Positions 5,552-25,769 of a DNA stretch of 64,000 bases are shown piece after piece. Position 1 is the stretch's first letter. Each line of letters begins with the position of its first letter. The stretch covers positions 17,696 through 81,695 of the forward strand of contig JAZSBR010000022.1 of NCBI GenBank assembly GCA_045602545.1. The letters run 5' to 3'. The notes beneath the pieces were generated by a model. It had not been told where the DNA came from. It made no database searches and was given only the letters and a program-made list of their open reading frames with translations. The position numbers and the translations under genes are program-made. This DNA comes from Alphaproteobacteria bacterium. GTDB lineage: Bacteria; Pseudomonadota; Alphaproteobacteria; RF32; CAG-239.

Positions 5552-5583
5552 CTTAATTTATACCCTCAGAGATACAAATTAAA
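5552..5583 (-). repeat. 32-bp quasi-palindromic site, copy A (inverted relative to B and C)
   Basis: Reverse complement TTTAATTTGTA-TCTCTGAGGG-TATAAATTAAG; 3 mismatches to the consensus TTTAATTTGTA-TCTCTAAGGG-TACAAATTAAA. Confidence 0.75.
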
Positions 5584-5637
5584 TATGTAAACTTTAATTT
5601 AAGCCTTTACTGTTAATCTAACTTTAAGAGGTATATT

Positions 5638-6834
5638 ATGGCACGTATAAATATCAGAGACTCATATAAACAATGGCTTATAAAGCAAGGCTTAAAGACT
5701 GAAACACCGGGCAAACATTCCAGCACGGTGACCGAATATTTACGACGGATTGATCGTATTTGCGATAAACATTATAAAAGCCATGACGCTACTGCTTGGA
5801 ATAAATTAACTAAAAACATTCAGGCCTTATTAATTTCTTATCATGAATGCCAAACCAAGGAATATCTAATCAACAAACAAAACATTGATGCTTTTCTAAA
5901 ATATTTTAATGATATTTCAAACAGTAATCAAATTAATCTAAATTTAAAAGTCAAGCTTAGTTTTATCAGCCAGAAAGAAAGCCAATTCATCACTATAACG
6001 ACTTTCAAAGAGCTTATTTCTTTTGTTTTGGTGTTTAAGGGCATTTTAGATATTGCAAAAAATATATCGAAATTAAGCGAAATTCATGATGTTCTCACCT
6101 TTTACAAGTTGACTTTTTCTAATGGAGCTCCGGAACGACAAATTTCATTATACCAAAACGCTATTGAAAAATTATCATGTAGCGATTCTCTGATCGAAAA
6201 TTTAATATTACACGTCGAATATATGAATGATTATACGGTTAAAGGCTTGGCCGGCTTAAATAAATTTTATACCTTTTTAAGTAATCCGCCGGCAAATGAT
6301 AACAATCGAACCTCATTACATCTTGTAAAACTAAAAAAAGACCGTGATGATGATAAGATTAATAACTGCCTTATCATTATTTCCGGTTATCGTGATAATT
6401 TCATGAAATGCCTTACCCAGACCAATCAGACAGGAAGCACGGCATTACAAATAAAAGCGCATTCTCAAACAGGAGGTTATCTACGTGCTGATGAAGTTGC
6501 TAATGTATTTGGTATTGATCCTAAAACACTTTGGAGATTAAAAAAAGACGAACTTTTTATGCCTGACTACGATACTTTTTATCATGAAGATAGAATTAAT
6601 CAATATCTACAAGAGCATTTTCATAGAGCGCAACCGCCATATTCCGATGTAGATTACTCTAGAAAAAATCTTAAATGGCATAATCGCCGTGATGTTGCCA
6701 GAATTCTCGGCGTAACAGAAAGAACAATTCTTAATTACACTAAAAAGGGCATATTAACCTATACAGATTATGCCCCCAAAGCTCCGCGATACTATCCCCC
6801 AGAAATAGAATTCTTGACAAATAAAAGATCTTAA
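5638..6834 (+). CDS. DNA-binding protein with an N-terminal integrase core-binding-like helical domain and two C-terminal MerR/excisionase-type HTHs
   Basis: HTH-like segments YLRADEVANVFGIDPKTLWRL and NRRDVARILGVTERTILNYTKKG; N-terminal YKQWL...STVTEYLRRI; RBS GAGG. Confidence 0.65.
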   Translation: MARINIRDSYKQWLIKQGLKTETPGKHSSTVTEYLRRIDRICDKHYKSHDATAWNKLTKNIQALLISYHECQTKEYLINKQNIDAFLKYFNDISNSNQINLNLKVKLSFISQKESQFITITTFKELISFVLVFKGILDIAKNISKLSEIHDVLTFYKLTFSNGAPERQISLYQNAIEKLSCSDSLIENLILHVEYMNDYTVKGLAGLNKFYTFLSNPPANDNNRTSLHLVKLKKDRDDDKINNCLIIISGYRDNFMKCLTQTNQTGSTALQIKAHSQTGGYLRADEVANVFGIDPKTLWRLKKDELFMPDYDTFYHEDRINQYLQEHFHRAQPPYSDVDYSRKNLKWHNRRDVARILGVTERTILNYTKKGILTYTDYAPKAPRYYPPEIEFLTNKRS

Positions 6835-6996
6835 TTTTTCTGAAAACAAAAAAAATTAAAAAATTTTTCTCTTATTTTCCTACATTCCCGATTCAATGAT
6901 TTTACTTATCCAATTTTAAAATATATATTAAGAGTATAGCGAGGCATAAAAACCAAGCTATAGAATCGTAACATATTTTATAAAAGGATTAAAAAA

Positions 6997-8829
6997 ATGA
7001 ACACAAATTTAGTATTAAAATCTGAAGTTTTGGCAGATGCAAATTTTTCAGAAGAAAAAATCATAGGCAACCAACATGATTTTGAATTGCCGGGCAATAT
7101 AAATATTACTTCGGTGATTGATATTATTAAAAACAACAACTTATCTGAAGATAAATTAAAAGATTTATTGAAAAATCAGGCTAATGATAACCTCTTTCCT
7201 GTATATACAAAGAGCGAAGATCAGCAAAATTTATCTATTATTGAAATTGAGCAGAAAATTCAGGCTGAAATAAAAAATTTACAAACCGCCCCTTTATCCA
7301 AAGACGCTTATAAGAACAGAATTATGTCAGCTCAGAACAAAGCAGCATATCTCTTAATTGCGGAATGTGCATTAGCTGAAGAATTGCGCGCGATTCCAAA
7401 GAAGCAAGGAAAACACAATAATCCTGAATATAAAACAAAATTGCAATATATAAAGGATACGTATGGCTTAACGCGCAAGCCTGCACTGGCTATACAAAAA
7501 TTACAATGGGAAAATGTTATTGCTGCTATCACATGGGCATATAAAAATGAGGAAATTCCCACACGTTCTTTAGCTCTCTCAAGTAATAAAAAGATAAAAA
7601 ACGAAAAAGAGAAAAATAAAAATCTTGCCATTGACGCAATAAAATTATCTTTGGATCCTAAGTATGAAAATGAATATAAGACACTTAATCTGTCAGAACC
7701 ATTGTACGCTACTTCATTATTTGCTTGCATTGGCTCCGGAACTTCAAGACTTAAAGAATTAAATATACATTGTGCTGTAGCTAATGAATATTTATCGGAA
7801 AGAGCTGAAATTCATAAAAAATTAGATCCTGATTGTTTAATGATACAAGGTGACATAAAAAATAAAAAGATATTAAAACAGATTGTAGCGGCAAATAAGC
7901 AAAAGGGCTGTAAATTGCTTTTGGCCTCTCCTCCTTGTCAGGTTGCATCTCAATTAAATACTGCTAAAGATAAAGAAGAAAAAATAGAGTCTACCTTATT
8001 TTATGATACAATCAAGTTCATTAAATCCACACATAACGACTTTATTGTCATTGAAAATGTGCCGCAATGGTTAAATTCTTGCCCTAAAGCTGCTAAAAAA
8101 ATTTTATGGAGTAAAGACAGAAAAACATATATCACAATCGGAGAATATATGAAACATCAGCTTGAAATGTTGGGATACAACGTGAATATTGAAATTGTAA
8201 ATGCAGCTGATTATTGGACCGGAGAAGAAAGAAAACGCTGTATAATTCTTGCATGCAAAAGAAAATACGGTGTTTGGAAATTTCCGAAAAAAGCTTTACG
8301 CAAACTTTCGTTATGGCAAGTAATTGGTGATTTACCGAGTATTGAACCGGGGATGTCTGTATCATCTTATAAATGGCATTACGCTCTTCCTTTGGAGCCA
8401 TGTAAAATAAGATTTTTAGCTCATACGCCGACTGCCTGTTCTGCATTTGATAACGCCGGTGAATATCAACCGGTTAATACAGATGGAACACCAAGCAAAG
8501 CACAATTTGAAGCCGCTTTCACAAGATTAGACTGGAATAAGCCTTGTAAAACAATTACAACAAGCAGCAATTATATCGGTGGAACTTATACTTTGCATCC
8601 GGGATATGCATTAACCGATGGTACATATTCTGATTGCCGTGTTTTATCTATATTAGAATTATTAAGAATTATAGGTTTACCTGAAGATTTTCTCGAACCC
8701 TTAGACCTTCCGATGGATAATAATAACATGTTAACCCCAGATGATGATAGCTTTATCAGAGAAGTTCTTGGTGAACACGTTTGTCCAAAAATGTATAATG
8801 CCTTAATGACTACCCTACCATTAAAATAA
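6997..8829 (+). CDS. DNA (cytosine-5)-methyltransferase with a ~230-aa N-terminal extension
   Basis: Motif I SLFACIG, motif IV SPPCQ, motif VI ENV, motif VIII ERKR, motif IX RVLSILE and motif X GEHV. Confidence 0.9.
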   Translation: MNTNLVLKSEVLADANFSEEKIIGNQHDFELPGNINITSVIDIIKNNNLSEDKLKDLLKNQANDNLFPVYTKSEDQQNLSIIEIEQKIQAEIKNLQTAPLSKDAYKNRIMSAQNKAAYLLIAECALAEELRAIPKKQGKHNNPEYKTKLQYIKDTYGLTRKPALAIQKLQWENVIAAITWAYKNEEIPTRSLALSSNKKIKNEKEKNKNLAIDAIKLSLDPKYENEYKTLNLSEPLYATSLFACIGSGTSRLKELNIHCAVANEYLSERAEIHKKLDPDCLMIQGDIKNKKILKQIVAANKQKGCKLLLASPPCQVASQLNTAKDKEEKIESTLFYDTIKFIKSTHNDFIVIENVPQWLNSCPKAAKKILWSKDRKTYITIGEYMKHQLEMLGYNVNIEIVNAADYWTGEERKRCIILACKRKYGVWKFPKKALRKLSLWQVIGDLPSIEPGMSVSSYKWHYALPLEPCKIRFLAHTPTACSAFDNAGEYQPVNTDGTPSKAQFEAAFTRLDWNKPCKTITTSSNYIGGTYTLHPGYALTDGTYSDCRVLSILELLRIIGLPEDFLEPLDLPMDNNNMLTPDDDSFIREVLGEHVCPKMYNALMTTLPLK

Positions 8830-8851
8830 AATAGCTCAGAACCTCGAATAT

Positions 8852-8881
8852 AAAGGGCAGAATGCAAAGTTCTGTCCTTTT
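8852..8881 (+). terminator. Intrinsic terminator after the methyltransferase
   Basis: AAAGGGCAGAA-tgcaaag-TTCTGTCCTTT hairpin ending in a T run. Confidence 0.65.
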
Positions 8882-8910
8882 AATTTGTATCACTAAGGGA
8901 ACGAATTTAA
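8879..8910 (+). repeat. 32-bp quasi-palindromic site, copy C
   Basis: TTTAATTTGTA-TCACTAAGGG-AACGAATTTAA; 4 mismatches to the consensus. Confidence 0.7.
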
Positions 8911-9424
8911 AGCGTGATAAATCAACATTACTCTTGATTTTGAAGTTATAATCTGATTATACTCAAATCAGATATAGTAAAATATATCTTGAGTGCCAAT
9001 AGGTGCAAGAGAGCTTTGAACGGCTCATTATACATCGCGGTACGGATGATACCGATAGGCTTATTTCTTGGATTTAAGCCACATTGCCTTGACATTTATG
9101 GTCGAGGAGCTTGTGGCATATGTCCAGAAGCTGTACTTGACAATGAAAGATTGGTTTTAAAAGCCACAAGAGTCATCACGATGTATATGATTGTTCAACT
9201 CCTCGACCACCTCTATTGGGTGGTTTTTGCTTTTTATATAGTATTTGTTGGAGCAATTGAAAAGTGGCTGAAAATATAAATAAAAACTTTTTGAATCCTG
9301 ATTGGTGGAAAAGAGCACTTATTAGAACTATTATAGATGAAATAGATAAGGGTATAGATGTAGATGAAATGGATAACAAGGTTTTAAACTGTGCCATTAA
9401 AAAGTTCAGCCGATAGTATTAAAG

Positions 9425-9637
9425 ATGAGAGAAACAACGCATTGTTTCTCTAGTGATATTTCAAGCGAAATTATGAAACAAATAAGTATTACACATAAAC
9501 AAAATGAGAAAATAAAAAAATTAAACGATAAAAATAAACAAAACGAAATGAACATAAGTAAGTTAAGGGCTGATATACAACGATGGAGTAACAATTTCAA
9601 GAATCAATCAGCAAACATAGAGGAATATGAATTATGA
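9425..9637 (+). CDS. Small coiled-coil hypothetical protein (possibly a gene fragment)
   Basis: 70-aa ORF coupled to the next ORF by an ATGA overlap. Confidence 0.35.
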   Translation: MRETTHCFSSDISSEIMKQISITHKQNEKIKKLNDKNKQNEMNISKLRADIQRWSNNFKNQSANIEEYEL

Positions 9638-9978
9638 ATATTATCCCTTTGCTATTTACAATAATACATAAAAGAAAAAAAGATAAACTCAAAAAACTTT
9701 TAAATCATTTGAAAGCATTATCAACTTTCAAAAATAATCAAGAATTAATTGACACTCAAAATAAAATGATAGAACAACTTCAGAAGAAAAATATAAATGA
9801 CGAAAATGAGATAAAAAGACTAATACAAGCGAAATCGGTAATACAATCTAAACGAAGCGGATTAATAAGTGGAAACATTAAAGTTAGCGAGCAAGCTTAT
9901 TCTGGAGACCATATTTTTCAAACCAAAAGCCCTTTCTATAAACCCATTGAAAAAGATCATAATGATGAAGAACAGTAA
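9634..9978 (+). CDS. Hypothetical coiled-coil protein
   Basis: 114-aa ORF with RBS GAGG and translational coupling. Confidence 0.5.
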   Translation: MNIIPLLFTIIHKRKKDKLKKLLNHLKALSTFKNNQELIDTQNKMIEQLQKKNINDENEIKRLIQAKSVIQSKRSGLISGNIKVSEQAYSGDHIFQTKSPFYKPIEKDHNDEEQ

Positions 9979-10004
9979 TATAACATTTTGAAAGGACGCA
10001 TTCT

Positions 10005-10982
10005 ATGAAAATTGAAATTGGGGAATCATTATTTTATTCTTGGTTACGACATATTAAGAACTGCCGAATAGTCCAAACAAATTGGAAAACTTCTAGTTCT
10101 TGGAAAATTTATCATGAAGAAGAATTGGAAAAACTTTATAACGCTGCCTTAATAGAGTTTTCCGATTGTTTAATAAAAAAAGATAAATTACCTCTCGGAC
10201 AGTTTTTGAAACAAGCTGAAATTGATGTTATCGGGAAAAGTGAAAATAATGAATTTTACGTAATAGATGTTGCTTTTCATAAAAATACCTGCAACTATAG
10301 CGGTAATGGAAATAGTAATGAAAAAAACATAACAAAAAAGTTAATAAGAGCTGCTTTTTGTTTATATGGTTATTTTGATACCAAAAAAGGTTTTATTATA
10401 TTTGCCACCCCAAAATTTGGAAAAACTTCTTTAGATAGAACACAACAATGCATAACAAAAGTCAAAGAGTTCTTTTCAAATAATGGTTTTAAATTTAATG
10501 TGGAATGCATTTGTAACGAAGATTTTAATAATAAAGTAGTTATTCCCGTTACAGAAAAATGTAATGATAATAGTGATACCGCAGAATTGTTTATGCGTGC
10601 TTATGATTTATGCACACTCACTTCTAATGTGAAAAGAAAATCAAAAAATTCTCCAACAGAACCCAAAACGAGCAAAATTAAAAGTACATCTATAAAAATC
10701 GGGCAAATTGTAAAAAACTATCTGATTCCAACTTTACTTAGTAATCAAATATCAATGGAAGAAATTCAAAAACTGCAAGATGCTGACTATTCTAAACAGA
10801 TATTTGATATAAATTATCCTCTTTTATCTAAAGAACGTATTATAAATGGTCGTGCTCGATATTATGTTAGTCCTTTATTAATTAAAGGTGTTAAATATTA
10901 TGTATGCCAAGAATGGTTTAATAGAAATTACCAAAAACTGGAAACTTGGCTTAAAGCACATAATGTAACAATTAAGGACTGA
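10005..10982 (+). CDS. Putative PD-(D/E)XK-type nuclease with a C-terminal DNA-binding-like domain
   Basis: EIGESLFYSWLRH, QAEIDVIG and VIDVAFH; C-terminal RYY...YYVCQEW segment of the kind seen in restriction-associated proteins. Confidence 0.55.
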   Translation: MKIEIGESLFYSWLRHIKNCRIVQTNWKTSSSWKIYHEEELEKLYNAALIEFSDCLIKKDKLPLGQFLKQAEIDVIGKSENNEFYVIDVAFHKNTCNYSGNGNSNEKNITKKLIRAAFCLYGYFDTKKGFIIFATPKFGKTSLDRTQQCITKVKEFFSNNGFKFNVECICNEDFNNKVVIPVTEKCNDNSDTAELFMRAYDLCTLTSNVKRKSKNSPTEPKTSKIKSTSIKIGQIVKNYLIPTLLSNQISMEEIQKLQDADYSKQIFDINYPLLSKERIINGRARYYVSPLLIKGVKYYVCQEWFNRNYQKLETWLKAHNVTIKD

Positions 10983-10985
10983 TTT

Positions 10986-12449
10986 ATGCTCCTATCTAAA
11001 ACTGACTATATTCTCGGCATGGATTGCGAAAAGGCTCTTTGGCTGATAAAACATCATCCGGAGTTAGTGCCTGATGTCGATGTAATGCTACAGCGTCGGT
11101 TTGACATCGGTAATGAAGTGCAAGAATATGCTCGTAAATTATTTCCTTCAGGTAAAATGGTTGGCGATGGTGATATTGAGTACATGACTCATAAAACCGA
11201 GCAGATGTCACAAGAATATAATGTTTTATTTGAAGCGACCGCAATATTGCCAGATAAAGCCTTTTGCCGCATTGATATCATGGAGCGTGAAGGAAACGCT
11301 TGGAATTTAATAGAAATAAAGTCAGCAACAGAAGTTAAGGATAATTACATTGATGATCTTGCCTTTCAAAAATATGTATTTGAAAATGCCGGTTACAAAA
11401 TCAATCGCTTAAAAGTGATATATCTGAACAAATATTACGTACGCAAAGGCATTTTAGATATTCGAGAGCTCTTTGTGATTGAAGATGTTACTTTGCTTGT
11501 AGATGAAGTTTATTCTGATGTTGGTTATAATATTGACGTATTACAGCAATTAATTGAGCAAAACGAAGAACCGGAAGTTCTGTTGCACAAAACAAATCCG
11601 TGTAAAGGCTGCGGTTTTAAATCTTATTGTCGGCGCGATCTGCCTGAATACCCTGCTTTCAGACTATTTTACTATGATAGAGATTGGCAAAAATTTTATA
11701 ATCAGTACAATACATATATTGTTGAAGATATACCGGATAGCTATGAGTTACGCCCTAAAGAAATTATTGATAAGCAATCCTATCTAACAGGAAAAACACA
11801 TATTGAACCTGAAAAAATACAAAATTGGCTAGATACACTTGAGTATCCGTTATATTATTTGGATTACGAAACCGCACAATTAGCAATTCCGCTGTTTGAT
11901 AACTCTAGGCCATATGCTCAAACACCTTTTCAGTTTTCTCTGCATATACAAGAAACCAAAGGCGGAGAATTAAAACACATAAGTTTTTTGCATAAAGATT
12001 GTTCTGATCCGCGACGTGCAATAGCTGAATGTCTGGTTAATAATTGCGGCACAAAAGGCTCGGTTATCGTATACAATAAAACATTTGAAATGACACGTAA
12101 CAAAGAATTGGCCAGTCTTTTTCCGGATTTATCAAAACAGCTCTTGGCAATTAATGAAAGAATCGCCGACCAATATGATATTTTTGATAAACGCTACTTA
12201 TATTGCCCTAAACAAAAGAGTTCGGTATCTATTAAGTACGTTCTACCGGCATTTTGCGATTTGTCGTATCAGGGTATGGAAATAGCCAATGGTGGCGAAG
12301 CCATGAGCGAATATGAAGCTTTCTTAAAAGGTAAGCAAACACCAGAAGAAACGGCAAAAATGTTTAATGCTCTGGAAAAATACTGTGCTCAAGACACTTA
12401 TGCCATGGTTAAACTTATGGAAGTTTTATACCAATACGCCGAGAAATAA
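10986..12449 (+). CDS. DUF2779-containing protein (RecB/Cas4-like nuclease plus RNase H-like domain)
   Basis: LSKTDY..C.K.LWL, RIDI..IEIKS, CxxCxxxxxC, YLDYET, PFQFSLH and YCAQDT. Confidence 0.8.
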   Translation: MLLSKTDYILGMDCEKALWLIKHHPELVPDVDVMLQRRFDIGNEVQEYARKLFPSGKMVGDGDIEYMTHKTEQMSQEYNVLFEATAILPDKAFCRIDIMEREGNAWNLIEIKSATEVKDNYIDDLAFQKYVFENAGYKINRLKVIYLNKYYVRKGILDIRELFVIEDVTLLVDEVYSDVGYNIDVLQQLIEQNEEPEVLLHKTNPCKGCGFKSYCRRDLPEYPAFRLFYYDRDWQKFYNQYNTYIVEDIPDSYELRPKEIIDKQSYLTGKTHIEPEKIQNWLDTLEYPLYYLDYETAQLAIPLFDNSRPYAQTPFQFSLHIQETKGGELKHISFLHKDCSDPRRAIAECLVNNCGTKGSVIVYNKTFEMTRNKELASLFPDLSKQLLAINERIADQYDIFDKRYLYCPKQKSSVSIKYVLPAFCDLSYQGMEIANGGEAMSEYEAFLKGKQTPEETAKMFNALEKYCAQDTYAMVKLMEVLYQYAEK

Positions 12450-12453
12450 CTTC

Positions 12454-13191
12454 TTATTTCTTTGCTATACTCAATAAATAGTTTTTGTATTGCTGCAACC
12501 CGCAAGATATCGTATTATGATGATTTTTGTTGTTAAATGCCAAACGAATTTCCTGATCTTTAGGTGTTGCATCAGGACTATCTTTTGTTAAATAATCCAT
12601 TACTTTTTGAAATTCTTCATAATTTTCAATCAGCCAAAGATTTTTATTTAAAATCTCAGAAGTAACATTAATTGCACTCTTATAACTGTTAATAGTTCCC
12701 TTAGATGGATATTTTTTCTCTAGATACGCAATAAAATGTTTCTGCCTTACCGCTGATACAAAATCATCCCGACTTACTACTTTAAGCGGTGGAGTAAATG
12801 GATTTTTTTTCAAATCTTCTAAATAAGCTGTCGCAACTTGGTTTGAAACCAAAGGACATGATTTAATAAAACTAATAAATGCTCCGTTTAATATATACAC
12901 TTTATTTTCATCTGCATCAGCAAAATTAATGATAACTGTCAAAATATCTTCAATCTTTTCAAGCCAATTACAAAGTTCTTCATCGCTTTGAAAAGCTTTT
13001 GCAACTATTTCTTTTATATCTTCATATTGCGAATCGTTAAAATTTTCCCGTTCTTTAAGAATCTGCGCCAGTAATTTTGTGTTTTGCATCAGGCTATCAT
13101 CTTTTTTTAGATTCCTTGCTACTGCCGTAGGTATAATGCTTTCTGTTAACACAAACTTACACCAAATATTGCTTAAATTTCCATCAGTCAT
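12454..13191 (-). CDS. Hypothetical protein with a C-terminal integrase core-binding-like helical domain
   Basis: Start moved to the ATG at 13191 (RBS GGGAG). C-terminal FIAYL...GTINSYKSAI...SCGLQQYKNYL. Confidence 0.6.
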   Translation of the reverse strand: MTDGNLSNIWCKFVLTESIIPTAVARNLKKDDSLMQNTKLLAQILKERENFNDSQYEDIKEIVAKAFQSDEELCNWLEKIEDILTVIINFADADENKVYILNGAFISFIKSCPLVSNQVATAYLEDLKKNPFTPPLKVVSRDDFVSAVRQKHFIAYLEKKYPSKGTINSYKSAINVTSEILNKNLWLIENYEEFQKVMDYLTKDSPDATPKDQEIRLAFNNKNHHNTISCGLQQYKNYLLSIAKK

Positions 13192-13367
13192 TATTTTCTC
13201 CCTATCAGACAAACTCAATATAAAACGAAAACTATAAAAAATCAATATATTTATAGTAAAATAACATTTTAGCACCATATTTCGCACAAAATCTATAAAA
13301 AATAAAATTATAGAGTATTGATTTTACATAATAATTAAAAATTTTACTATTTTTTATAATTTTTTTC

Positions 13368-13396
13368 TTGACAACCGATTTTAAATAATTTATATA
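13368..13396 (+). promoter_or_regulatory. Probable promoter for riboswitch copy 1
   Basis: TTGACA-17 nt-TATATA directly upstream of the aptamer; the -10 is imperfect. Confidence 0.45.
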
Positions 13397-13400
13397 TGTA

Positions 13401-13493
13401 ATCAACCTATAAGGAGTTGTGCGAGGGACAAGCCCTATGACCACACAGCAACCGACAAAATGCACGGTGCTAAAGCTTGGATGATAGGTGGAT
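13401..13493 (+). promoter_or_regulatory. SAM-I (S-box)-type riboswitch aptamer, P4-less variant, copy 1
   Basis: P1 ACCTAT/ATAGGT; J1/2 AGGAG; P2 with kink-turn GA/GA; P2b GGG/CCC with loop ACAAG able to pseudoknot with CTTG; P3 AGCAACCG/CGGTGCT. Confidence 0.88.
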
Positions 13494-13500
13494 TTTTGAA

Positions 13501-13529
13501 GCCTATCGTTGTCGATGGGTTATTTTTTT
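13501..13529 (+). terminator. Expression-platform terminator of riboswitch copy 1
   Basis: GCCTATCG-ttgt-CGATGGGT followed by TATTTTTTT. Its 5' arm CCTATC can instead pair with GATAGG of P1 as an antiterminator. Confidence 0.85.
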
Positions 13530-13585
13530 ACTCTCGTTCTCTCCTTTGGGTTATTGTATTAACTTTTTTCATTAGGAGAAATTCT

Positions 13586-13993
13586 ATGGTAACAAATAAA
13601 AGATGGGCTTTCAAAAAAAATAAATCAGGTGTAGCAAGATGTTGCCGCGCTAAAGGAGTTAATGTTAATAATGATATTTGTCTCGCATCTATAAAACAAA
13701 CTCTTTACAAATTACAATATGTATATTGGGCAGATATGGATGACAAAACATTTTTAAATAGAGATTGGACATTTATTTTTCATGATCAATACAAAAAACT
13801 TTTTCATATATTCTCTATTCCTAAAGGACAATTGACGCCAGATTTAAGGAAAGCTAACAGAAAGCTTAATTTAGTCGACTGGAATATAAAAACAGCTTTC
13901 TATAAAGATGTAGATACTGGCTTTGATTTCAGTAATTTTTTTGTTAAAACAATTAGGTATGATGACCAAGATATTCTAAAATATGATAATTAG
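13586..13993 (+). CDS. Hypothetical protein (135 aa) downstream of riboswitch copy 1
   Basis: The ATG at 13586 has RBS AGGAG. The ORF-track start at 13460 lies inside the riboswitch. Confidence 0.7.
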   Translation: MVTNKRWAFKKNKSGVARCCRAKGVNVNNDICLASIKQTLYKLQYVYWADMDDKTFLNRDWTFIFHDQYKKLFHIFSIPKGQLTPDLRKANRKLNLVDWNIKTAFYKDVDTGFDFSNFFVKTIRYDDQDILKYDN

Positions 13994-14173
13994 CAAAACT
14001 TATATACTCGTATAAATGTATAAAAAATAATTGTCATTGACAGACATATTAATTGTCATTTTGGTATAATATAATGTCATAAAATATCAGGGAATGTTGC
14101 AAAAACAAAATGTTAGCACTTTTTTTGATATTTTAATATAACATAAAATAACTTTTTAAGAAAGGAATCGGAA

Positions 14174-14302
14174 ATGTGGTATGTAGTTGTAGAAGGAAAT
14201 AAACTTCCAACCCCTTATTTAACAATGGATGATGCAGTAAAAGCCATGAACGCTTTGAGATCCGTTTATCGCAATTGTTGCATGGATATTGTTTATGAAT
14301 AA
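14174..14302 (+). CDS. Small protein (42 aa, MWYVVVEGNKLPTPY...CCMDIVYE), below the ORF-track cutoff
   Basis: RBS AAGGA before the ATG; followed by the hairpin TCGGTT/AACCGA. Confidence 0.55.
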   Translation: MWYVVVEGNKLPTPYLTMDDAVKAMNALRSVYRNCCMDIVYE

Positions 14303-14331
14303 TATCGGTTAAATAAACCGAAAATATGGAA

Positions 14332-14414: not shown

Positions 14415-14423
14415 AACTTTAGA

Positions 14424-14453: not shown

Positions 14454-14495
14454 GCCCTCTTTATAGGTTAATTTTATCAAAAACGGAGAGCAAAT

Positions 14496-15050: not shown

Positions 15051-15062
15051 AGGGAAAATGTC

Positions 15063-17009: not shown

Positions 17010-17020
17010 GGAAAACAGAT

Positions 17021-17578: not shown

Positions 17579-17743
17579 TAGTTATACATGCGGTTGTTTT
17601 CTGTCTGTTTATTAGTAATCCCGTCTAAACGGAAGCAAAATGTTACCAATAAACTTCATTTTAGGGGCTCGCGAAGGTGAATTTCCACGACATACTATTT
17701 AATGTAAATAGTTAATAACACTAATTTTGAAAGGAATAAAACC

Positions 17744-18016
17744 ATGCAAAAACAATTTGAACAATACCTACAATCAAAGAATTATAGTGCAACAACAGCT
17801 ATTGATTATCCGGCACGTTTAGAAAGACTTTGCAGAAAAGAGAAGTTTAGCTATGAACATCTGGCACAACATTTAGCTGAGATTATGCCTCAATATGAAA
17901 GAACAGGTAAAAAGTCATCTTATGGCAAGAGAAGCCATTCATCTGTCATCAATGCTTTGAGAAGATTTGCTGAATTCTTATCAGATTGCAACATCAAATT
18001 TGAAGGTGCGAACTAA
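17744..18016 (+). CDS. Stand-alone integrase core-binding-like helical protein
   Basis: FEQYL...SATTAIDYPARL...INALRRFAEFL; RBS AAGGA. Confidence 0.65.
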   Translation: MQKQFEQYLQSKNYSATTAIDYPARLERLCRKEKFSYEHLAQHLAEIMPQYERTGKKSSYGKRSHSSVINALRRFAEFLSDCNIKFEGAN

Positions 18017-18336
18017 TGACTGATATTGCAACGTTAAATGATAATTTCCGTAAAACATTTACCGGTGGTCAGGTGCTCTTGACTGCCGGTATTGCTGCCA
18101 TGAGTTCAGAAGATAAAGCAAATATTATATCACTAGTTCAAAATTTTGATAATTTTAATGAAGATAATGACCCTTATAAAGAACATGATTTTGGAAATTT
18201 TGACTATAAAGGCAATAAAATCTTCTGGAAAATAGACTATTACGACCGGTTTAATACACATTTTGCTTCTGAAAATCCAGCTGATATAAGCAAAACATTG
18301 AGAATACTCACCATCCTGTTGGCAGAAGAATATTAA
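18016..18336 (+). CDS. DUF3768-family protein
   Basis: IATLNDNFR, DNDPYKEHDFG, FWKIDYYD and RILTILLAEEY. Confidence 0.85.
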   Translation: MTDIATLNDNFRKTFTGGQVLLTAGIAAMSSEDKANIISLVQNFDNFNEDNDPYKEHDFGNFDYKGNKIFWKIDYYDRFNTHFASENPADISKTLRILTILLAEEY

Positions 18337-18360
18337 ACACAAACACCAAAGCTTGTTTTT

Positions 18361-18433
18361 TGACACCATAACAAGAGTTTCCAAATTTTATATATAAGTC
18401 TATATGAAACATGAATTCGTTGTTATGGTGTCA
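18361..18433. repeat. 73-bp element with perfect 14-bp terminal inverted repeats (MITE-like or bidirectional hairpin)
   Basis: TGACACCATAACAA (18361-18374) and TTGTTATGGTGTCA (18420-18433), with TTTT on both flanks. Confidence 0.6.
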
Positions 18434-19102
18434 TTTTATACAATTTATATAGTTATTTAAGAAATATTGCCAATTATCCAGATTTTGTTCCGCAAAAAAT
18501 TGTTGCAAAAATCTTACCATAAATTGATGCCGATTCTCCGCTTCTGTTTTACCTACTTCTGTTTGCATCGCTCCTTTTAACAGTAATAATTTCTCAAAAA
18601 AGTGATTAATCATATGCTTTTTATTGTTTTCCGGAGAAGGCAGTTCTTTTTCATTAAATAAAGGCTGATTGCGTGAGACACTGAAACTTAAGGCTCTACA
18701 TATACCAATAGCGCCCATAGCATCTAACTTATCAGCATCCGATAATAATTTCATTTCTAATGTCCTAAAATTGGGATTTGCACCACTTTTGGAAAAACTT
18801 ATAGCATCAATTGTTTCTAAAATTTCTTGAATGGTGTTTGTATCAAGATTTAGGTTATACAAAAACTTTTCAGCAACTTTACCATCTGTATTCATCTTAT
18901 GATCATCTACGTCATGCAATAATGCACTCATTTTGCAAATAAATTCATTTGCATTTTTTTCTTCATTTAGTAATTTATTGATATTTGCATAAACACGTTT
19001 TATATGCTCAAAATCGTGTCCGGAATTATCTCCGGAATGATATTCTTTGGCAAATTGATATGTTTTATTTAATATATCTTCCTGCATCATAATCCTTTCC
19101 AA
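18431..19102 (-). CDS. HD-domain phosphohydrolase (YedJ-like)
   Basis: GHDFEHIKRV, ALLHDVDD, DADKLDAMGAIG and HFFEKLL. Confidence 0.9.
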   Translation of the reverse strand: MERIMMQEDILNKTYQFAKEYHSGDNSGHDFEHIKRVYANINKLLNEEKNANEFICKMSALLHDVDDHKMNTDGKVAEKFLYNLNLDTNTIQEILETIDAISFSKSGANPNFRTLEMKLLSDADKLDAMGAIGICRALSFSVSRNQPLFNEKELPSPENNKKHMINHFFEKLLLLKGAMQTEVGKTEAENRHQFMVRFLQQFFAEQNLDNWQYFLNNYINCIK

Positions 19103-20289
19103 ATTTTACTTTTTCTTACTTGTTGAATAAATAAGTCGTTTTTATTAACAATATCACTTTTTGTAGCTGATAAAAAATCATAAATTATTTGTTTTTCTTC
19201 TTTTTCTGATAAAAAATTAACTTGTGTTTTTACAACCGAATTTCCTTGTTCTAAATTTGAGACGCACTTAAGCAACGCTGAAAATGTTAGATAAATGTAT
19301 GGAGACAACATTTCATTACATAATTGCGGATAAGCAAAATTTATAGCATTTCCCTTATTTAAAAAATTAACTTGCTGAACAGGATATATTTTGTTGTTAT
19401 TCTCAGGCATTTGATTTAAGCGGATTGAAGTAAAATTAAATTCATCTTCTGATGAGGTACAAGATGCAATATAACAACCTTGTTTTATGTCTGGCAAATC
19501 TGTATCACTTAAAGACTTATGTCCTGTTGCGCATATTAAAACATCAGAATTTTCAAGTATATTTGTTTTAGAAGAATATCGGAATCCTGATGTATCTATG
19601 AACTTTCTTACATTTTCATCATTATCAAAAATCAAAACATTCAATTTTAGCTTTTCCTTAAGATAAAAAGCACATCCTCGTCCAACCTCTCCAAACCCGA
19701 TAATTCCAATTCTTTTATTTTTCAGCATTATATGATTTTCGCTCAATAGTCGTTCTGTCGCCGAGGCTATTGAGCGGCCAATTAAGTAATCTTCAAAATC
19801 TTTGGCTCTACTCCTTGCTACAGAAAATATAGGTAAGTTATTTTCGGGATATTCTGATAATTTCTGTTCATACTTTTGTAATCCGTTTTCTGTATCTTCT
19901 ATAATTCCCAAAATATTAGAATATTGATTTAATTTCTTTAAAGATGGTGCAAAGTATCCTCCTGTATCAAAAATAATTAATTTTTCATCATTTTGTATTA
20001 ATGGTGATACTTTTTGACTGATAGTAGAATCAATGAAAAAATCTGTTCTTTTAAAATCAAGAATTTTAATACCACTACATGTTGCTTGTTTTTTAGTCTT
20101 TTCATCTACAGAATTTGGTTTTGCAATCAATCCAGCTACTCTACCTTTCTTAGAAAGAGTATTTAAGAAATCTATGGTATTATCAACCAAATGAGTTACC
20201 ACAATGAAACACTTTTTAGAATCTGAAAAATCAGATGTGATAGTGTCCATAAATTTCAATGCTTGTGTTTTTGGGTTGCAATTTTTCAT
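19087..20289 (-). CDS. Divergent adenosylhomocysteinase (AdoHcyase)-like NAD-binding protein
   Basis: DTGG, EDTENG (cf. EETTTG), K..ED..IG, Rossmann GFGEVGRG, ATG and G..IN. Confidence 0.7.
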   Translation of the reverse strand: MKNCNPKTQALKFMDTITSDFSDSKKCFIVVTHLVDNTIDFLNTLSKKGRVAGLIAKPNSVDEKTKKQATCSGIKILDFKRTDFFIDSTISQKVSPLIQNDEKLIIFDTGGYFAPSLKKLNQYSNILGIIEDTENGLQKYEQKLSEYPENNLPIFSVARSRAKDFEDYLIGRSIASATERLLSENHIMLKNKRIGIIGFGEVGRGCAFYLKEKLKLNVLIFDNDENVRKFIDTSGFRYSSKTNILENSDVLICATGHKSLSDTDLPDIKQGCYIASCTSSEDEFNFTSIRLNQMPENNNKIYPVQQVNFLNKGNAINFAYPQLCNEMLSPYIYLTFSALLKCVSNLEQGNSVVKTQVNFLSEKEEKQIIYDFLSATKSDIVNKNDLFIQQVRKSKIWKGL

Positions 20290-20301
20290 GATAAACTCGA
20301 A

Positions 20302-20913
20302 TCAATATTTCTTAATGTTTTTAAGTTGTAAAATAAAATTATCTAAACTTATATTTTGGGTATTATTGATTCTTGATATCATATTAGCCATTTTTTGAGG
20401 ATTAATATTTAAAGTATTAAAAAATACGACATTGTAATCGATTTTTTCTTGAAAAAATTCTTTATTTTTTTGATTAAATTTTTCATCTAAATAAAATGAT
20501 GGCATATCAAAATCACCTCTGTCATAACAACGATCTTTTCGCGTTTGAGTATCTATATCCAGAAAAATAATTATATCAGGGTTGATAACTTCTTTAAGTA
20601 AATCCTTGTTTTTTAATAAATTATGGCAATCATCATTATTTTTTGCATATTCAAACGCTAATAATGTTAAATATGATCTGTCCAATACCAAATTTACTGA
20701 TTTATCAAGAAACTCCTTCTGTCGCCTTTTTTCGATATTTAAAAGTAAAGGTAATGCGCTTTGCTTTGATTTTTGCAAATAATCTAATTCAAGTTGTTCT
20801 TCTTTTGTTATAAAATCCATATATTCCGGAACCATCAGAAATGAATGTTTTGACAACTCTTTTGCTAAAGTTGTCTTGCCGCTACATATTCCACCCTCTA
20901 ATGCAAGTATCAT
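20302..20913 (-). CDS. Deoxynucleoside/dNMP kinase-family P-loop protein
   Basis: LEGGICSGKTT, VPEY, LDRS and PDIIIFLD...R...RG. Confidence 0.8.
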   Translation of the reverse strand: MILALEGGICSGKTTLAKELSKHSFLMVPEYMDFITKEEQLELDYLQKSKQSALPLLLNIEKRRQKEFLDKSVNLVLDRSYLTLLAFEYAKNNDDCHNLLKNKDLLKEVINPDIIIFLDIDTQTRKDRCYDRGDFDMPSFYLDEKFNQKNKEFFQEKIDYNVVFFNTLNINPQKMANMISRINNTQNISLDNFILQLKNIKKY

Positions 20914-20918
20914 TAAAC

Positions 20919-21515
20919 TTACTCCAACATCTGTAATAAATTTAAAACATCATTTTCATTTCTAACACAAAAACTATTTCCTCCTATTTTTTTAAAAATT
21001 TCACAGTTGCTTTTCGAGTTATCTAGTAAAATTGATTTTTTGATGTCAGATTTTGTATCCTTTAACGCTTTTATGAAAAGAGATTCCTCTTCATCGCCTT
21101 TCAAAATACCCAAATCAGCAGAATTATAAATTCTATCAAAGTGTTGACCAAGCTTCAATTGCGGCTCAGTATATATTGTAAAACTGTCCATATTATCTGT
21201 AATTAAATAAACATTATTATTTTTTCGACACCTATCTATAGCTCTTAAAATATCAGCACTAACCGTCATTGTTTTACAATCGGCTACAAAGATTGAAAAA
21301 ACATCTTTAAAATCAACCTCTAAAGAAAGAGCAACAAATTTACAAATTTCTTCAGAAGTTAATTTACCCCGCATCCAGTTCTCTAGAGTTTCACCATTTC
21401 CACCGCGAAAAAGAAAATCCTCAATTTTTCGTTTCAATGTTTCAGGAGCTGTCCGCCAAAAAGTATCAAAACATATTGTTCCGTCAAAATCTATGAATAT
21501 ATTTTGTTTTTTCAT
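20919..21515 (-). CDS. HAD-superfamily phosphatase
   Basis: DFDGT, ITDN, K and LLDNS motifs. Confidence 0.85.
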   Translation of the reverse strand: MKKQNIFIDFDGTICFDTFWRTAPETLKRKIEDFLFRGGNGETLENWMRGKLTSEEICKFVALSLEVDFKDVFSIFVADCKTMTVSADILRAIDRCRKNNNVYLITDNMDSFTIYTEPQLKLGQHFDRIYNSADLGILKGDEEESLFIKALKDTKSDIKKSILLDNSKSNCEIFKKIGGNSFCVRNENDVLNLLQMLE

Positions 21516-21569
21516 CTTGTATCCTTTTTAGTTATATTATATTACTAATAATATAAAGAAAGGTTTAAG

Positions 21570-22265
21570 ATGCAAGCAATTTTTTTATCTCCGCATTATG
21601 ATGATATTGCGTTTTCTGTTAATTCATTTGTAGAAAAGGACGATATCATTATTGATGTATACACGGAAACAAAATACATTGAAAATAAAAACATATTTTT
21701 AAATATGTCCGTTTCAGAGTTAAGAAAACAGGAAGAAAGGATATATACAAATGGTAAAAATGTATCATTTATAAACTTGGATTTTTTAGATGAGTGCCCA
21801 AATATAACACCATTTTCGTTTTATCATAATATACAGCCGAGAACTATGATAGAAAATAAAATACTTGATTTATTAAAAACTTTATCTGATAAAGGATATT
21901 CAAAACTTTTCTCTCCTCTTGGCGTTGGTAAGCACTATCATCACATGGAAGTATTTGAAATCGTTCATAAAAACTACATTTACCTATCAAAAAAATTTGA
22001 GATATTCTTTTACGTTGATTTTCCATACATATCCTACAAAAATAACTTACGCCAAAGATTACGATACCTATCACGGTTTCTTAAGCAAAACTCTATTCAT
22101 CAAAAGAAATTGTTGTTAACTAGAGAGCAGATACAAAACAAACTAGTTTCATTATCTGCATACAAAAGCCAATTTATTGATACAAATCGACAAACCATAC
22201 TTCTTAAAATGAGAGATTTAAAAGGAAATTTTTCTGAAATCATTTTTTCTTCACATTTTGAATAA
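21570..22265 (+). CDS. PIG-L/LmbE-family N-deacetylase
   Basis: SPHYDD, R..EE, HYHH, DFPY and YKSQ. Confidence 0.8.
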   Translation: MQAIFLSPHYDDIAFSVNSFVEKDDIIIDVYTETKYIENKNIFLNMSVSELRKQEERIYTNGKNVSFINLDFLDECPNITPFSFYHNIQPRTMIENKILDLLKTLSDKGYSKLFSPLGVGKHYHHMEVFEIVHKNYIYLSKKFEIFFYVDFPYISYKNNLRQRLRYLSRFLKQNSIHQKKLLLTREQIQNKLVSLSAYKSQFIDTNRQTILLKMRDLKGNFSEIIFSSHFE

Positions 22266-23307
22266 GATTTAGAAATTCTTCACATACATTTCTCGTAAAT
22301 TTTTGACTACAGTTATACGCAAGATTTTGAAAATGCTTATAATTATTTTCGTTTTTACATATACTTATTGCCTTTATCCATAAGTTAACATCAAGATTAT
22401 CTAATAAAATACCAGCCCCATTTAATGCTTCAGATATTCCACCTATATTATGTGCAATCACAGGAATTCCACGTAGCGAAGCCTCAACAATTACCCGCCC
22501 GAAAGCTTCTTCTACCACAGATGGAACAACTAAAATCTTTGTCTGCTTCCAAATATTATCCATATCCATCTGTAGTGGATAGTATTTTATATTAGTAGAC
22601 ATATTATCATAAAATTCATCATTTTTGTACCATCCCTCTACTGCTAGAAACTGTTCTTCTGGCATATTTTTTGCGAGTTCTAAAACAAAAGTAGCACCTT
22701 TTTCTTTGACTGGATTAATAAATGTTATTTTATCTCCAGTATTTATCATTTTATTAATTTTACTAAATCCAGAATAAAAAACAAAATTTGGTATATTATA
22801 TAATGATAGAATTCTTTGTTGGATAAATTTTGATGTACTGAATAGTATATCTGGACGTCCTTTTGCTACAATAGTTCCCTCTATATTTGCAGAATGTAAC
22901 CATCCTATAGTAAGCTCAGTATATTTTTTCGCAACAGAAACAAGTTTATCAGCACCTTCCATTGATAGTATAATAGCTGTAATTTTATTATTAATTGTTT
23001 TCAATAAACTTTCTGCCTCATCTAATAAACTATTTTGAGGATATAAATAGCACGTAATCCCATTATATTGATATGAAATACATTTATTAGAGAAACTCAA
23101 ATTTTTGATATTATTTGCACACTTAATTGTCTGTCCATAAAAATTTTGCCTCTCTTTTGCCGGATAAGTTGGATTTTCTATGCTTCCAATAAAAATAACA
23201 TTGTGTCCATTTGCAGTCAATTGTTCCGCTAAAAAATTATGAGTAATTTCTGCACCACCCAAAAACAAAGGGGGAGTTGGACGTCGTGTAATAAAAATAA
23301 AAAACAT
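22240..23307 (-). CDS. GT4-family glycosyltransferase
   Basis: GGAE, KG and VPSVVEEAFGRVIVEA...GIPVI...GGISE. Confidence 0.9.
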   Translation of the reverse strand: MFFIFITRRPTPPLFLGGAEITHNFLAEQLTANGHNVIFIGSIENPTYPAKERQNFYGQTIKCANNIKNLSFSNKCISYQYNGITCYLYPQNSLLDEAESLLKTINNKITAIILSMEGADKLVSVAKKYTELTIGWLHSANIEGTIVAKGRPDILFSTSKFIQQRILSLYNIPNFVFYSGFSKINKMINTGDKITFINPVKEKGATFVLELAKNMPEEQFLAVEGWYKNDEFYDNMSTNIKYYPLQMDMDNIWKQTKILVVPSVVEEAFGRVIVEASLRGIPVIAHNIGGISEALNGAGILLDNLDVNLWIKAISICKNENNYKHFQNLAYNCSQKFTRNVCEEFLNLIQNVKKK

Positions 23308-23369
23308 TGCAACCTCATTTTTATTTTAGTATATTGTATGCAATAATAAGCAATTGGAGTTAAAATAAT

Positions 23370-24476
23370 ATGAAAAAGGTATATATAATATGTCCAACTT
23401 TTAGAGATAACACGCATAGTAAGTTGAGGGAAATTGGTATACTGGATTTAATTCATCAAACAATTAATAAATCAAACCTCTATCTGTGTATCATAGATTC
23501 TAGCAAATATCCTCTCAAACTATTTAATGACTTACCTGTAATTAACAATAATATTATCTATTTACATGTTCCATCTAAAAAAGTAGCTATAGATAAGTAT
23601 GCTAATACTTTTCCTTACGCAATGAATTTTTGCATAACAAAAAATCATAATAAATTTGATTATTATCTGAATATAGTGGATTCTTGGAGTAAGTTTGTAC
23701 CTTGGGATGATAATTTTCCGCATCAAAAAACACTAAAGGATCATTTTTTAGCTTCGCGCCCTTCTATAGGAATGAAAAGGAATATGGCTATTGCCGCACT
23801 AGAAGAAACTTTCGGGAATGGAGATATTATTTGCTACGCCGATGATGATGATTTCAGATCAAAATCTTATTTTCACGATATGATAGATTATATAGCTGAT
23901 AATGATTTTATCAGAATTTCTAAATGGTTAACTTGCTGCTTTAATACGAGTATAGATAACTCCGTTTATGGCTTATATGATATCCCGTTTATTCAAGACG
24001 TTAATGGTTTTTTCCATCTTAAAACTCGTGATACTGACATTTTATATAATTCACGCAATGCTGATTTTTGTAATTTTTCAGTAAAAGAACATTATTCCAA
24101 AATTAAGAATATGGCTTTTTCACCTATGTCATATGATGGAGCTGTACATGTATTTTCTAAAAAGCTTTGGGTTGATTCTATAGATGCTTTTGGAGGTATC
24201 ACACCTGTAAGTTTGGGTGAAGATACATGCTTTTTCAAAAGTTGCCAGAATTATTTCGGGTCAAGTTTTAAATATAATATGATTAATAATAAAAAATTAA
24301 ATTTTATAAGATGTGCCAATAATAATGCATCATTAATTCAATGGACTGAAAATATTGCTTTAGATGATATGCCTAAATGGGCTCAAAGTAAAATAATTGA
24401 TATTTATAGATTATTAAATAGTGAGCAAGAATTGAAAAAACGTAGCACATATATATTCAAAAACAATTTGCTTTAG
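23370..24476 (+). CDS. GT2/GT-A-like glycosyltransferase
   Basis: IICPTFR, IIDSS, SIGMKRN, YADDDD and GED. Confidence 0.7.
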   Translation: MKKVYIICPTFRDNTHSKLREIGILDLIHQTINKSNLYLCIIDSSKYPLKLFNDLPVINNNIIYLHVPSKKVAIDKYANTFPYAMNFCITKNHNKFDYYLNIVDSWSKFVPWDDNFPHQKTLKDHFLASRPSIGMKRNMAIAALEETFGNGDIICYADDDDFRSKSYFHDMIDYIADNDFIRISKWLTCCFNTSIDNSVYGLYDIPFIQDVNGFFHLKTRDTDILYNSRNADFCNFSVKEHYSKIKNMAFSPMSYDGAVHVFSKKLWVDSIDAFGGITPVSLGEDTCFFKSCQNYFGSSFKYNMINNKKLNFIRCANNNASLIQWTENIALDDMPKWAQSKIIDIYRLLNSEQELKKRSTYIFKNNLL

Positions 24477-24940
24477 ATTTGTCTTTTGGCCCTATACGCA
24501 TAGATTTATTTTTTACTATAAACTAACCAATAGAAATGAATCTTGATTGTATAGGACCATTTTTTATGACCATATCAATATTATATAATTTTTATATATT
24601 CACGATGATTTATAACAGCTTTATTGCTCTGATGTTATTGATATGTCGTGATTCTTATTGAATGTAAAACCGTTAATGAAAAAATTTTAAATTATTTTCC
24701 ATTACTAATTTGAGGCACACTTCTTTTCCCTTTGGAAAGGAAGTCTCGTTTTATGACCGCAGGACTCAATATTTATTTTTGGTATAGGTTTACTTATAAA
24801 AAATGAATCCGCTAGTCCGGTGGCTGTTTATTGAGTCATAAACAGTATTTTTTGCAGATAGCTAAGCTGAAAAGACAAACATCTGAGGATAAAAAGCATA
24901 TATACTATTTTGGTAAAACATTCTAATACTTGGTACTTTA

Positions 24941-25495
24941 TTACTTTATACCAAGATAGAATAAGTCAGATGAATCAAAGATAACACTACTATCATAATG
25001 ACCATTACGTCTATTTACTTTAATTTCTTTCAAGCAATAGAAGTCAGTATTTATAACTGAATCTAATAACGTATGTATATCATCTGCTGTAATATGCTGT
25101 AAATCTAAGCAATAATCAGACATTCCGCTTATAGTCCTAATAGTCTTCTTAATAGCATTATAAAGCATATCATCAGTAAAAGACAGTTGATTAAATAAGA
25201 CATTAAAATGCCAGTATATGCCACAACCTTTTTCAGCTGTCACAATAAATGGCAGATGATGCTTATTCCAATGATTCTTAATAAGACTTTTCTCAAATAC
25301 TTTCATAATCAGTCGCAATCTGCTTTTTGCATGGTCTAGTTTAGTTGATTCCCAATTCTGTGGCAATCTAACCACTAAGTAATGTGTTGGCATATATGTC
25401 GTATTAATGAAATTCACATACTCTCGCTTTATTCTTTCAGCTATATCATGCTTTGGCATACTTAGTGTGTGCTTGTGTCTTAATAGATTAGTCAT
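24941..25495 (-). CDS. HUH-endonuclease / rolling-circle Rep-like protein
   Basis: Motif I THYLVVRL, motif II-like EKG...WHFNVLF (HxN instead of HxH) and motif III YCLKE. Confidence 0.5.
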   Translation of the reverse strand: MTNLLRHKHTLSMPKHDIAERIKREYVNFINTTYMPTHYLVVRLPQNWESTKLDHAKSRLRLIMKVFEKSLIKNHWNKHHLPFIVTAEKGCGIYWHFNVLFNQLSFTDDMLYNAIKKTIRTISGMSDYCLDLQHITADDIHTLLDSVINTDFYCLKEIKVNRRNGHYDSSVIFDSSDLFYLGIK

Positions 25496-25737
25496 TGCTC
25501 TTACTTTCTTATTTATATTTACTTATTTTTGAGTATAGTTATCACAAAAGCATCAATTTAATGATGCTTATGGAAAAAAGCTAATTTCTTAGCCTAAATA
25601 CGTTATTGTTGAGACATCAAATCTCACGTATTTATGTTTCTTAGAACACAGATTTTCAGGATTTTTGTATAAATATTTTTCCATTTACTGCATTGAGATT
25701 GTTTTTCTATGCATATTATTACGCGCGTAAGACCCTT

Positions 25738-25769
25738 TTAAATTTGTTTCTCTAAGGGTACAAATTAAA
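25738..25769 (+). repeat. 32-bp quasi-palindromic site, copy B
   Basis: TTAAATTTGTT-TCTCTAAGGG-TACAAATTAAA; 2 mismatches to the consensus. Confidence 0.75.

Follow-up and report, generated by a model that had tools for sequence, protein, structure and literature searches.

What are three similar copies of a 32-bp imperfect palindrome, set between the gene modules of a bacterial genomic island, there to do? The question is raised by a 64,000-nucleotide stretch of an Alphaproteobacteria genome (GenBank assembly GCA_045602545.1, contig JAZSBR010000022.1, positions 17,696 to 81,695; hereafter the window), in which a first-pass annotation had placed such sites at 5552–5583 (− strand, copy A), 8879–8910 (+, copy C), and 25738–25769 (+, copy B), with 2–4 mismatches each, and had proposed that they partition the island. 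All three are present there, and they differ from that first consensus at 3 (A), 4 (C), and 2 (B) positions. No copy lies inside any assigned gene, as claimed, although short mechanical open reading frames (ORFs) do overlap the region of C (8862–8951, +, 29 aa, overlapping; 8586–8867, −, nearby). The layout was also described correctly: A and C bracket a gene for a helix-turn-helix (HTH) protein and a DNA methyltransferase gene, and B lies between a gene for an HUH (Rep-like) protein and a pair of recombinase genes. Copy A ends 54 nt upstream of the start of the HTH gene (5638), C begins 49 nt past the methylase stop (8829), and B occupies the divergent region between the HUH gene (243 nt away) and an operon of a small ORF and large serine recombinases (LSRs), the first of which begins 426 nt from B at 26196. 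The copies are real and specific to this lineage of elements, occupy conserved borders, and are linked in sequence to the HTH-methylase module.

Base composition does not explain the copies, because shuffles and a whole-genome scan gave nothing else. At up to 3 mismatches the window holds 2 matches, compared to a mean of 0.00 (0 matches) in 100 dinucleotide-preserving shuffles, and in the draft genome (54 contigs, 1,604,272 bases) copies A, C, and B were the only matches at up to 8 mismatches. The concern that the motif might simply be common in AT-rich DNA is thereby removed, and the genome-wide scan proposed earlier yields no further copies beyond these three places. The likeness among the copies ends after ∼34 bp, and no target-site duplications were seen around them by eye. 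With three copies, all within one island, they do not behave as a dispersed repeat such as repetitive extragenic palindromic (REP) or miniature inverted-repeat transposable element (MITE)-like sequences. Deviations from the consensus affect 2 of 30 positions in the 10-bp core and 7 of 66 in the arms, no clear difference in conservation in favor of the core. An alternative reading as a 28-bp site of layout 11-6-11 gives, by eye, arms complementary at 9/11 (A), 7/11 (C), and 8/11 (B) positions, with central 6-mers that are all different, by 1–2 bases. The central dinucleotide of the 32-mer in A is unlike that in C and B, and C and B are direct repeats when judged by their central bases. A scan for the motif pattern returned 0 matches in viral contigs and 6 loci in metagenomes, one of which (L018) shows no homology to the island and is probably a chance match. 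One metagenome contig (L013–L015) has all three copies, in the order and orientation of the window.

The exact motif is absent from 40 of 40 relatives. Related elements in this bacterial family have palindromes of their own (26–32 bp, with arm layouts from 11-4 to 11-7-11), and these occupy the corresponding borders, preceding the HTH and LSR genes and following the methylase and HUH genes. Because these palindromes recur at the same module borders, the claimed partition holds for the whole family. Each of the 10 distinct regions upstream of HTH homologs contains, 48–92 nt before the start, a palindrome in which at least 9 arm positions match (in two of the ten it is not the first on the list), so that copy A, at 56 nt from the start codon, and all ten homolog regions display a dyad at a conserved position before the regulator's own gene, as an operator would. 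Each element's own palindrome recurs kilobases away, and in 7/7 elements it is found 49–72 nt past the methylase gene. A scan of 23 loci that was blind to gene position detected 35 within-locus pairs of similar palindromes, compared to 1.8 in block-shuffled controls. A strict scan for palindrome pairs gave no analogue in L005–L012; a relaxed scan with shuffled controls gave pairs in L007 and in newly added loci.

Other short repeats occur in the vicinity of these palindromes. G+C-richer stretches with several iteron-like short direct and inverted repeats are present at 3390–3560 of L007 and in the regions upstream of the HTH homologs in L055, L058, and L075. In several relatives these stretches and a kept 13-nt element are ∼50 nt away from the palindromes, and a similar short element lies directly left of B.

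We compared the distribution of the motif with that of each neighboring module. Among 281 other genomes of the bacterial family, the sole match (in G261) is copy A beside an HTH gene 94% identical to that of the window; the rest of the element was not found in G261, whose contig ends inside the HTH gene. Genome G258 encodes an HUH protein 91% identical and an integrase-SAM-like protein 94% identical to those of the window, and its HUH module (window 24619–25667) has 96.6% DNA identity. No window-type motif was found in G258, either at the locus or genome-wide; instead, a palindrome particular to G258 precedes both its HTH gene (24% identical) and its LSR gene. The LSRs tell a similar story. 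The L005 genome encodes LSRs 97% (LSR1) and 98% (LSR2) identical to the window pair, and the L006 genome encodes LSRs 94–95% identical, and neither genome contains the motif when up to 3 mismatches are allowed; in all, 0 copies were found in the 4/4 genomes searched that have LSRs 94–98% identical, and none in eight LSR-relative loci, so the motif does not co-occur with these recombinases. Copy B lies between an HUH module 96.6% identical to that of G258 and an LSR module 95% identical to that of L005, in a 136-bp stretch (25668–25803) common to neither, yet it matches A and C. Judged from these comparisons, the palindrome sequence follows the HTH-methylase module and neither the LSR nor the HUH module, which indicates a trans-acting factor from that module.

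Our preferred explanation, a tentative one that we place short of an even chance, is that the copies are bound by the double-HTH protein of the island and serve in regulation. The copies would be cis-sites of an element-specific DNA-binding protein, marking the borders of gene modules. The likeliest binder would be the 398-aa protein encoded beside A (5638–6834, +), a candidate with two MerR/excisionase-type HTH domains (residues ∼275–303 and ∼352–375). These are the sole domains recognized in it, with no recognizable enzyme domain, and HTH_17 is detected in 6/10 members of its protein family. Invariant residues are present between the two HTH domains. A search of 5.8 billion clusters yielded only 25 relatives, all unnamed, including homologs at 83, 78, 67, 55, and 45% identity (P0013–P0018); a profile search against Protein Data Bank sequences gave nothing below E 0.01, and the best Atlas score (0.82) is a lead only. 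Homologs are present in 35/282 genomes of the bacterial family. Bound to A, the protein would control its own gene and that of the methylase, a C5 cytosine DNA methyltransferase of 610 aa with an N-terminal extension of ∼240 aa (6997–8829, +). On B it would control the divergent HUH and recombinase promoters, and on C it would control or insulate the cargo operon that now lies downstream of the methylase gene. Near C, a terminator-like hairpin (8852–8880, +) stands 3′ of the methylase gene and abuts the copy, and a promoter-like hexamer pair (8934–8963) lies 24 nt past it; a scan for intrinsic terminators lists none at the sites themselves, and the hairpin precedes C. A shared operator for the protein at 5638 was one of two readings offered by the first-pass annotation, and it is the one that has gained, given the palindromes before 10/10 homologs and a motif that tracks the HTH module. 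We infer both of its steps, namely that the HTH protein binds the copies and that binding regulates transcription.

Several observations weigh against an operator function. The methylase, with its unexplained N-terminus of ∼240 residues, travels with the HTH gene and is an alternative candidate binder. The joint divergence of copy A and the HTH gene could be plain linkage of adjacent sequences; because A adjoins the HTH gene, the stronger linkage argument rests on the distant copies. The post-methylase copy keeps a tight distance to the methylase stop (49–72 nt) and not to the next gene start, and because its spacing is kept to the stop it resembles a module border more than an operator. One of the copies in relatives is placed where the HUH and DUF3768 genes converge, between their 3′ ends, and a promoter is unexpected there. 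Promoter-like hexamers are not enriched near the sites (16 versus 21.2 expected, and 10 versus 13.8 expected). Finally, C and B stand at both ends of a segment that is inverted with respect to the gene order of relatives.

Known regulators offer partial parallels to the operator reading. Mobile elements can encode repressors that act on multiple operators, such as phage lambda CI and the immunity repressors of integrative and conjugative elements. As in those systems, an HTH gene of the element is preceded by a dyad site, with more copies near recombination and replication genes; unlike those repressors, the island protein has 398 aa, two MerR/excisionase-type HTH domains, and no named family, its binding is only predicted, and in relatives the sites of the island family are also found at gene 3′ ends. 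The C proteins of restriction-modification systems are small, control the nuclease gene, and bind C-boxes. The island resembles them in having the HTH gene directly before the methylase gene and a dyad a few tens of bases before the HTH gene, and differs in the length of the protein, in the lack of a nuclease gene paired with the methylase, and in the extra copies kilobases away.

The best-surviving rival, which we regard as somewhat unlikely, is that the copies are site-specific recombination sites delimiting exchangeable or invertible modules. The recombinase, of unspecified kind, would be encoded by the element; the HTH protein might act jointly with the SAM-like protein, or it might guide the LSRs. 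Gene order, which we compared in 22 loci (14 + 8), speaks for this reading. In the conserved order, one strand carries HTH, methylase, and HUH; the opposite strand then carries DUF3768 and the gene for a 90-aa integrase-SAM-like protein; variable cargo comes next, followed by LSR, back on the first strand. In 13/13 loci that have both genes, the methylase gene is next to the HUH gene on one strand, and in 10/10 loci with both DUF3768 and LSR the two are on opposite strands. In the window, the stretch from just past the methylase to just before the small ORF and the LSRs is turned round. This segment (8911–25737; cargo, SAM-like, DUF3768, a nucleotide-metabolism cassette, and HUH) ends at C and B. 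The same turned form is seen in the metagenome contig with all three copies, in L016, in L017, and in contigs of sequencing runs X1 and X2.

Other features are also in keeping with recombination. In several elements the sites enclose modules tightly and at conserved positions; from one element to another, homology ends within 35–70 bp of the sites; and modules adjoining the sites are gained or lost, such as the block from −3740 to 5492 next to A, where the module border at 5493 marks the end of homology with G261 and with the metagenome contig coassemble_38. In L007 the LSR genes lie ∼1.3 kb past the methylase and its palindrome, with two small ORFs and one 164-aa ORF between them and no HUH or DUF3768 homolog between the methylase and LSR genes. 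The 11-6-11 reading also fits the core site of a tyrosine recombinase, with arms of ∼11–13 bp around a 6–8-bp spacer. The 9.2-kb block mentioned above (window −3740 to 5492; contig C22 13956–23187) encodes two KAP NTPases, Mrr, phrog_30194, a PDC-S41 helicase, and an SNase-like gene; it is missing from G261 and coassemble_38, both of which join the tRNA-Gln flank to 5493.

Other observations speak against recombination. No rearranged junction was seen in the assemblies and contigs compared. Logan contigs of four runs, compared with window positions 8000–27999, are collinear across C in 3/3 covering runs and across B in 2/2, all gut metagenomes; run X6 barely covers the stretch, and rare switching would be invisible in contigs. 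No joint or loose end lies at C or B among those listed, which leave aside a further 20 joints and 413 loose ends, and because A is outside the compared 20-kb stretch, A-C and A-B junctions could show as loose ends only. The homology breaks fall 35–70 bp away from the sites and not within them. With their central bases in direct orientation, C and B could not turn round the segment between them by a conservative exchange. The element has no complete tyrosine recombinase, just the 90-aa SAM-like domain, and a DUF6538 fragment lies outside it. The arms differ between elements of closely related hosts, which argues against a host Xer system, and LSRs 97–98% identical work in a genome without the motif. 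Thus, of the inversion between A and C and the C-B circle that had been attributed to the neighboring recombinases, no rearranged form was seen, and what stands is that C and B end an inverted segment.

Acinetobacter plasmids carry a comparable arrangement, in the form of dif modules bounded by 28-bp pdif sites (PMC13141974; PMC6449649). The 11-6-11 reading has the pdif layout of 28 bp with a 6-bp spacer, and the two systems share short imperfect palindromes around modules that vary in content and orientation. The pdif sites are similar to the dif site of the host, whose XerC/XerD act on them. In PMC13141974, recombination was seen only between sites with identical spacers, whereas the central 6-mers of A, C, and B differ. 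The island is further set apart by its element-specific arms, by the absence of observed junction products, and by its nature as an LSR-borne chromosomal island and not a plasmid. A more ambitious version of the recombination idea, which we consider decidedly unlikely, would make the palindromes the border sites of a previously undescribed module-shuffling system with the double-HTH protein as its element-encoded specificity factor. If so, LSR-borne defense islands of gut Alphaproteobacteria would be assembled from HTH-methylase, HUH, DUF3768-cargo, and recombinase cassettes, each with element-specific 26–32 bp dyad sites that the HTH protein recognizes, directing exchange, inversion, or excision. 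Such a system would be an analogue of dif modules in which the element's own variable recognition protein replaces host Xer.

Setting recombination aside, the palindromes could form strand-specific hairpins in single-stranded nucleic acid, which we judge quite improbable. They might act as RNA stem-loops at the 5′ or 3′ ends of module transcripts (in stability, processing, termination, or protein binding) or as single-stranded DNA during rolling-circle replication or transfer. On the forward strand of the motif, all copies form a stem of 12 to 14 pairs with a 4-nt loop and G-U pairs in the “core,” at predicted energies of −10.0, −6.3, and −5.2 kcal/mol versus −0.3, −2.4, and −2.4 kcal/mol for the other strand. 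In relatives, wobble-type arm mismatches favor the HTH-sense strand 9 versus 2 at the two sites around HTH-methylase, and the other strand 10 versus 4 at the pair of sites enclosing the DUF3768-cargo module, which is transcribed in the opposite direction. However, this grouping of sites is post hoc and the copies are related by descent, the overall strand bias is nil (14 versus 16), and 23/53 arm mismatches are not of wobble type. Copy A runs contrary to the trend, as its stable strand is antisense to the HTH gene. Shuffled sequences folded at least as well in 1/200 (A), 9/200 (C), and 16/200 (B) cases, so that A alone beats nearly all of them; none of the copies is followed by a U-tract. A search of window positions 1–36000 against Rfam 15 found no match at the sites at E ≤0.1 and gave two SAM riboswitches only.

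It is very unlikely that the copies are relics without function, duplicated together with junction DNA as the island was rearranged. The exact motif is confined to close relatives, in which the flanks are as conserved as the motif itself: in L013, L016, and L017, B shows no conservation beyond that of its surroundings, the whole of 24800–26100 being ∼90–99% identical. Because the flanks are equally conserved, these comparisons give no sign of extra constraint on the motif. Remnants would hardly account, however, for equivalent palindromes at the same borders in many diverged elements (the 35 pairs against 1.8 expected), or for copies that share nothing past their first ∼34 bp.

Also hard to sustain is an origin or nick site for the HUH protein, either as a rolling-circle origin or in the style of REP sequences and their REP-associated tyrosine transposases (RAYTs), and we rate it as highly improbable. 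The protein itself (24941–25495, −, 184 aa) has three Rep-like motifs, and its homolog in L009 matches PF23343; homologs of the window protein are present in 53/282 genomes of the bacterial family. The idea draws on a stem-loop with a kept loop, on the proximity of B to the HUH gene, and on copies on both sides of that gene in relatives. Against it, G258 has the near-identical HUH protein and module and no window-type motif, so the two do not co-vary; the HUH motif has asparagine in place of its second histidine (His-Phe-Asn in the window versus His-Phe-His in the L009 homolog); and three copies do not make a dispersed repeat family. REP sequences are associated with RAYT (HUH) genes, and HUH proteins also act on the ends of IS200/IS605 elements. 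The small HUH gene of relatives is likewise flanked by short hairpin-forming palindromes, but these do not co-vary with the HUH protein, only three copies are present per genome, and the HUH domain matches Rep family PF23343 and not the Y1 transposases. Relatives of the HUH protein come in two lengths, ∼190 and ∼340 aa.

The first-pass reading taken literally, with the copies as attachment or inversion sites of the two adjacent LSRs, is highly improbable as well: B is just 426 nt before the LSR genes, an imperfect dyad of this size falls within the range of LSR attB sites, and the tandem LSR pair recalls the CcrA/CcrB arrangement, but the L005 and L006 genomes, with LSRs 94–98% identical, and eight LSR-relative loci have no motif, the central dinucleotide of A is unlike that of C and B, no junctions were seen in contigs, and a 22-bp box by the LSR module is the better candidate. 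In particular, the copies are unlikely to be the LSRs' own sites because the L005 genome has LSRs 97–98% identical and no motif. Composite staphylococcal cassette chromosome (SCC) islands combine CcrA/CcrB with repeated copies of the attachment site, and the island shares with them a tandem LSR pair at one end and repeated short sites that divide it into units; unlike in SCC, the motif does not travel with the recombinases. The window LSRs are not Ccr proteins, because they reach 38.7 bits with the NCBIfam CcrA model, for which the cut-off is 700.

The recombinase end of the island has features of its own. The two tandem LSR genes (26196–29228, +; 478 and 530 aa) are paralogs; L013, L016, L017, and run X2 have a single LSR (a contig skips from 26163 to 27625), and in L006 a truncated first LSR is joined to DNA from near 17955. 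They are preceded by a conserved 54-aa ORF (25875–26039, +). The 22-bp conserved box lies at the start of the LSR module (25802–25823, +), 33 nt right of B, with an inverted copy downstream of the HUH gene (24660–24681, −), so that the HUH gene and copy B are enclosed by two boxes in opposite orientations, with 0 and 1 mismatch. In relatives, the box is found after the HUH gene and before or after LSR, with a kept hexamer 9 nt further on. The box may serve the LSR as its site or act in a promoter, and it appears a better candidate for an LSR site than the 32-bp motif.

The 90-aa integrase-SAM-like and DUF3768 proteins (17744–18336, +) are encoded by a pair of genes that belongs to the core of the element family. 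Directly before the SAM-like gene, at 17718/17720, ∼5.5 kb of extra DNA is present in a contig of run X1. The nucleotide-metabolism cassette that follows the pair (18431–24476; HD, S-adenosylhomocysteine (AdoHcy)-hydrolase-like, deoxynucleoside kinase, HAD, and glycosyltransferase genes) is an insertion, as L013, L016, L017, L020, and runs X1/X2 join ∼18250–18440 to ∼24480–24740. Elsewhere in the mobile cargo, the two SAM-I riboswitch aptamers (RF00162; 13404–13521 and 14331–14445, +) score 53.9 and 57.3 bits, above the gathering score; they form a direct repeat of ∼90% identity, each before an ORF without assigned function (13460–13993 and 14496–15050).

The window is part of a low-G+C region (∼30%, versus ∼39% in other long contigs) that adjoins a tRNA-Gln gene. 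This gene lies left of the island (contig C22 13675–13749; window −4020 to −3946), and right of the island are a piece resembling a tRNA 3′ end (30277–30317) and an N-terminal integrase fragment (DUF6538; 30293–30574). The combination suggests an old tyrosine-integrase island at the same hotspot. Defense-type genes in the region include GmrSD, a type I restriction system, Abi, KAP NTPases, Mrr, a PDC-S41 helicase, and a Cas4-like nuclease. The closest relatives are uncultured Alphaproteobacteria from animal and human gut samples, and the runs that hold the stretch are labeled sheep, bovine, or gut metagenomes. No published description of the element family was found in literature searches on DUF3768, alone or with a serine recombinase.

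The interest of the locus lies in an undescribed modular family of defense islands whose border sites are specific to each element. Should these be operators, as we tentatively prefer, they would define the regulon of an uncharacterized regulator family, governing genes for methylation, replication, and excision, in defense-carrying islands that are widespread in gut Alphaproteobacteria of animals. If they are recombination sites, they would represent a new way of swapping defense cargo between islands. Either way, the conserved border positions provide a practical rule for dividing these islands into modules.

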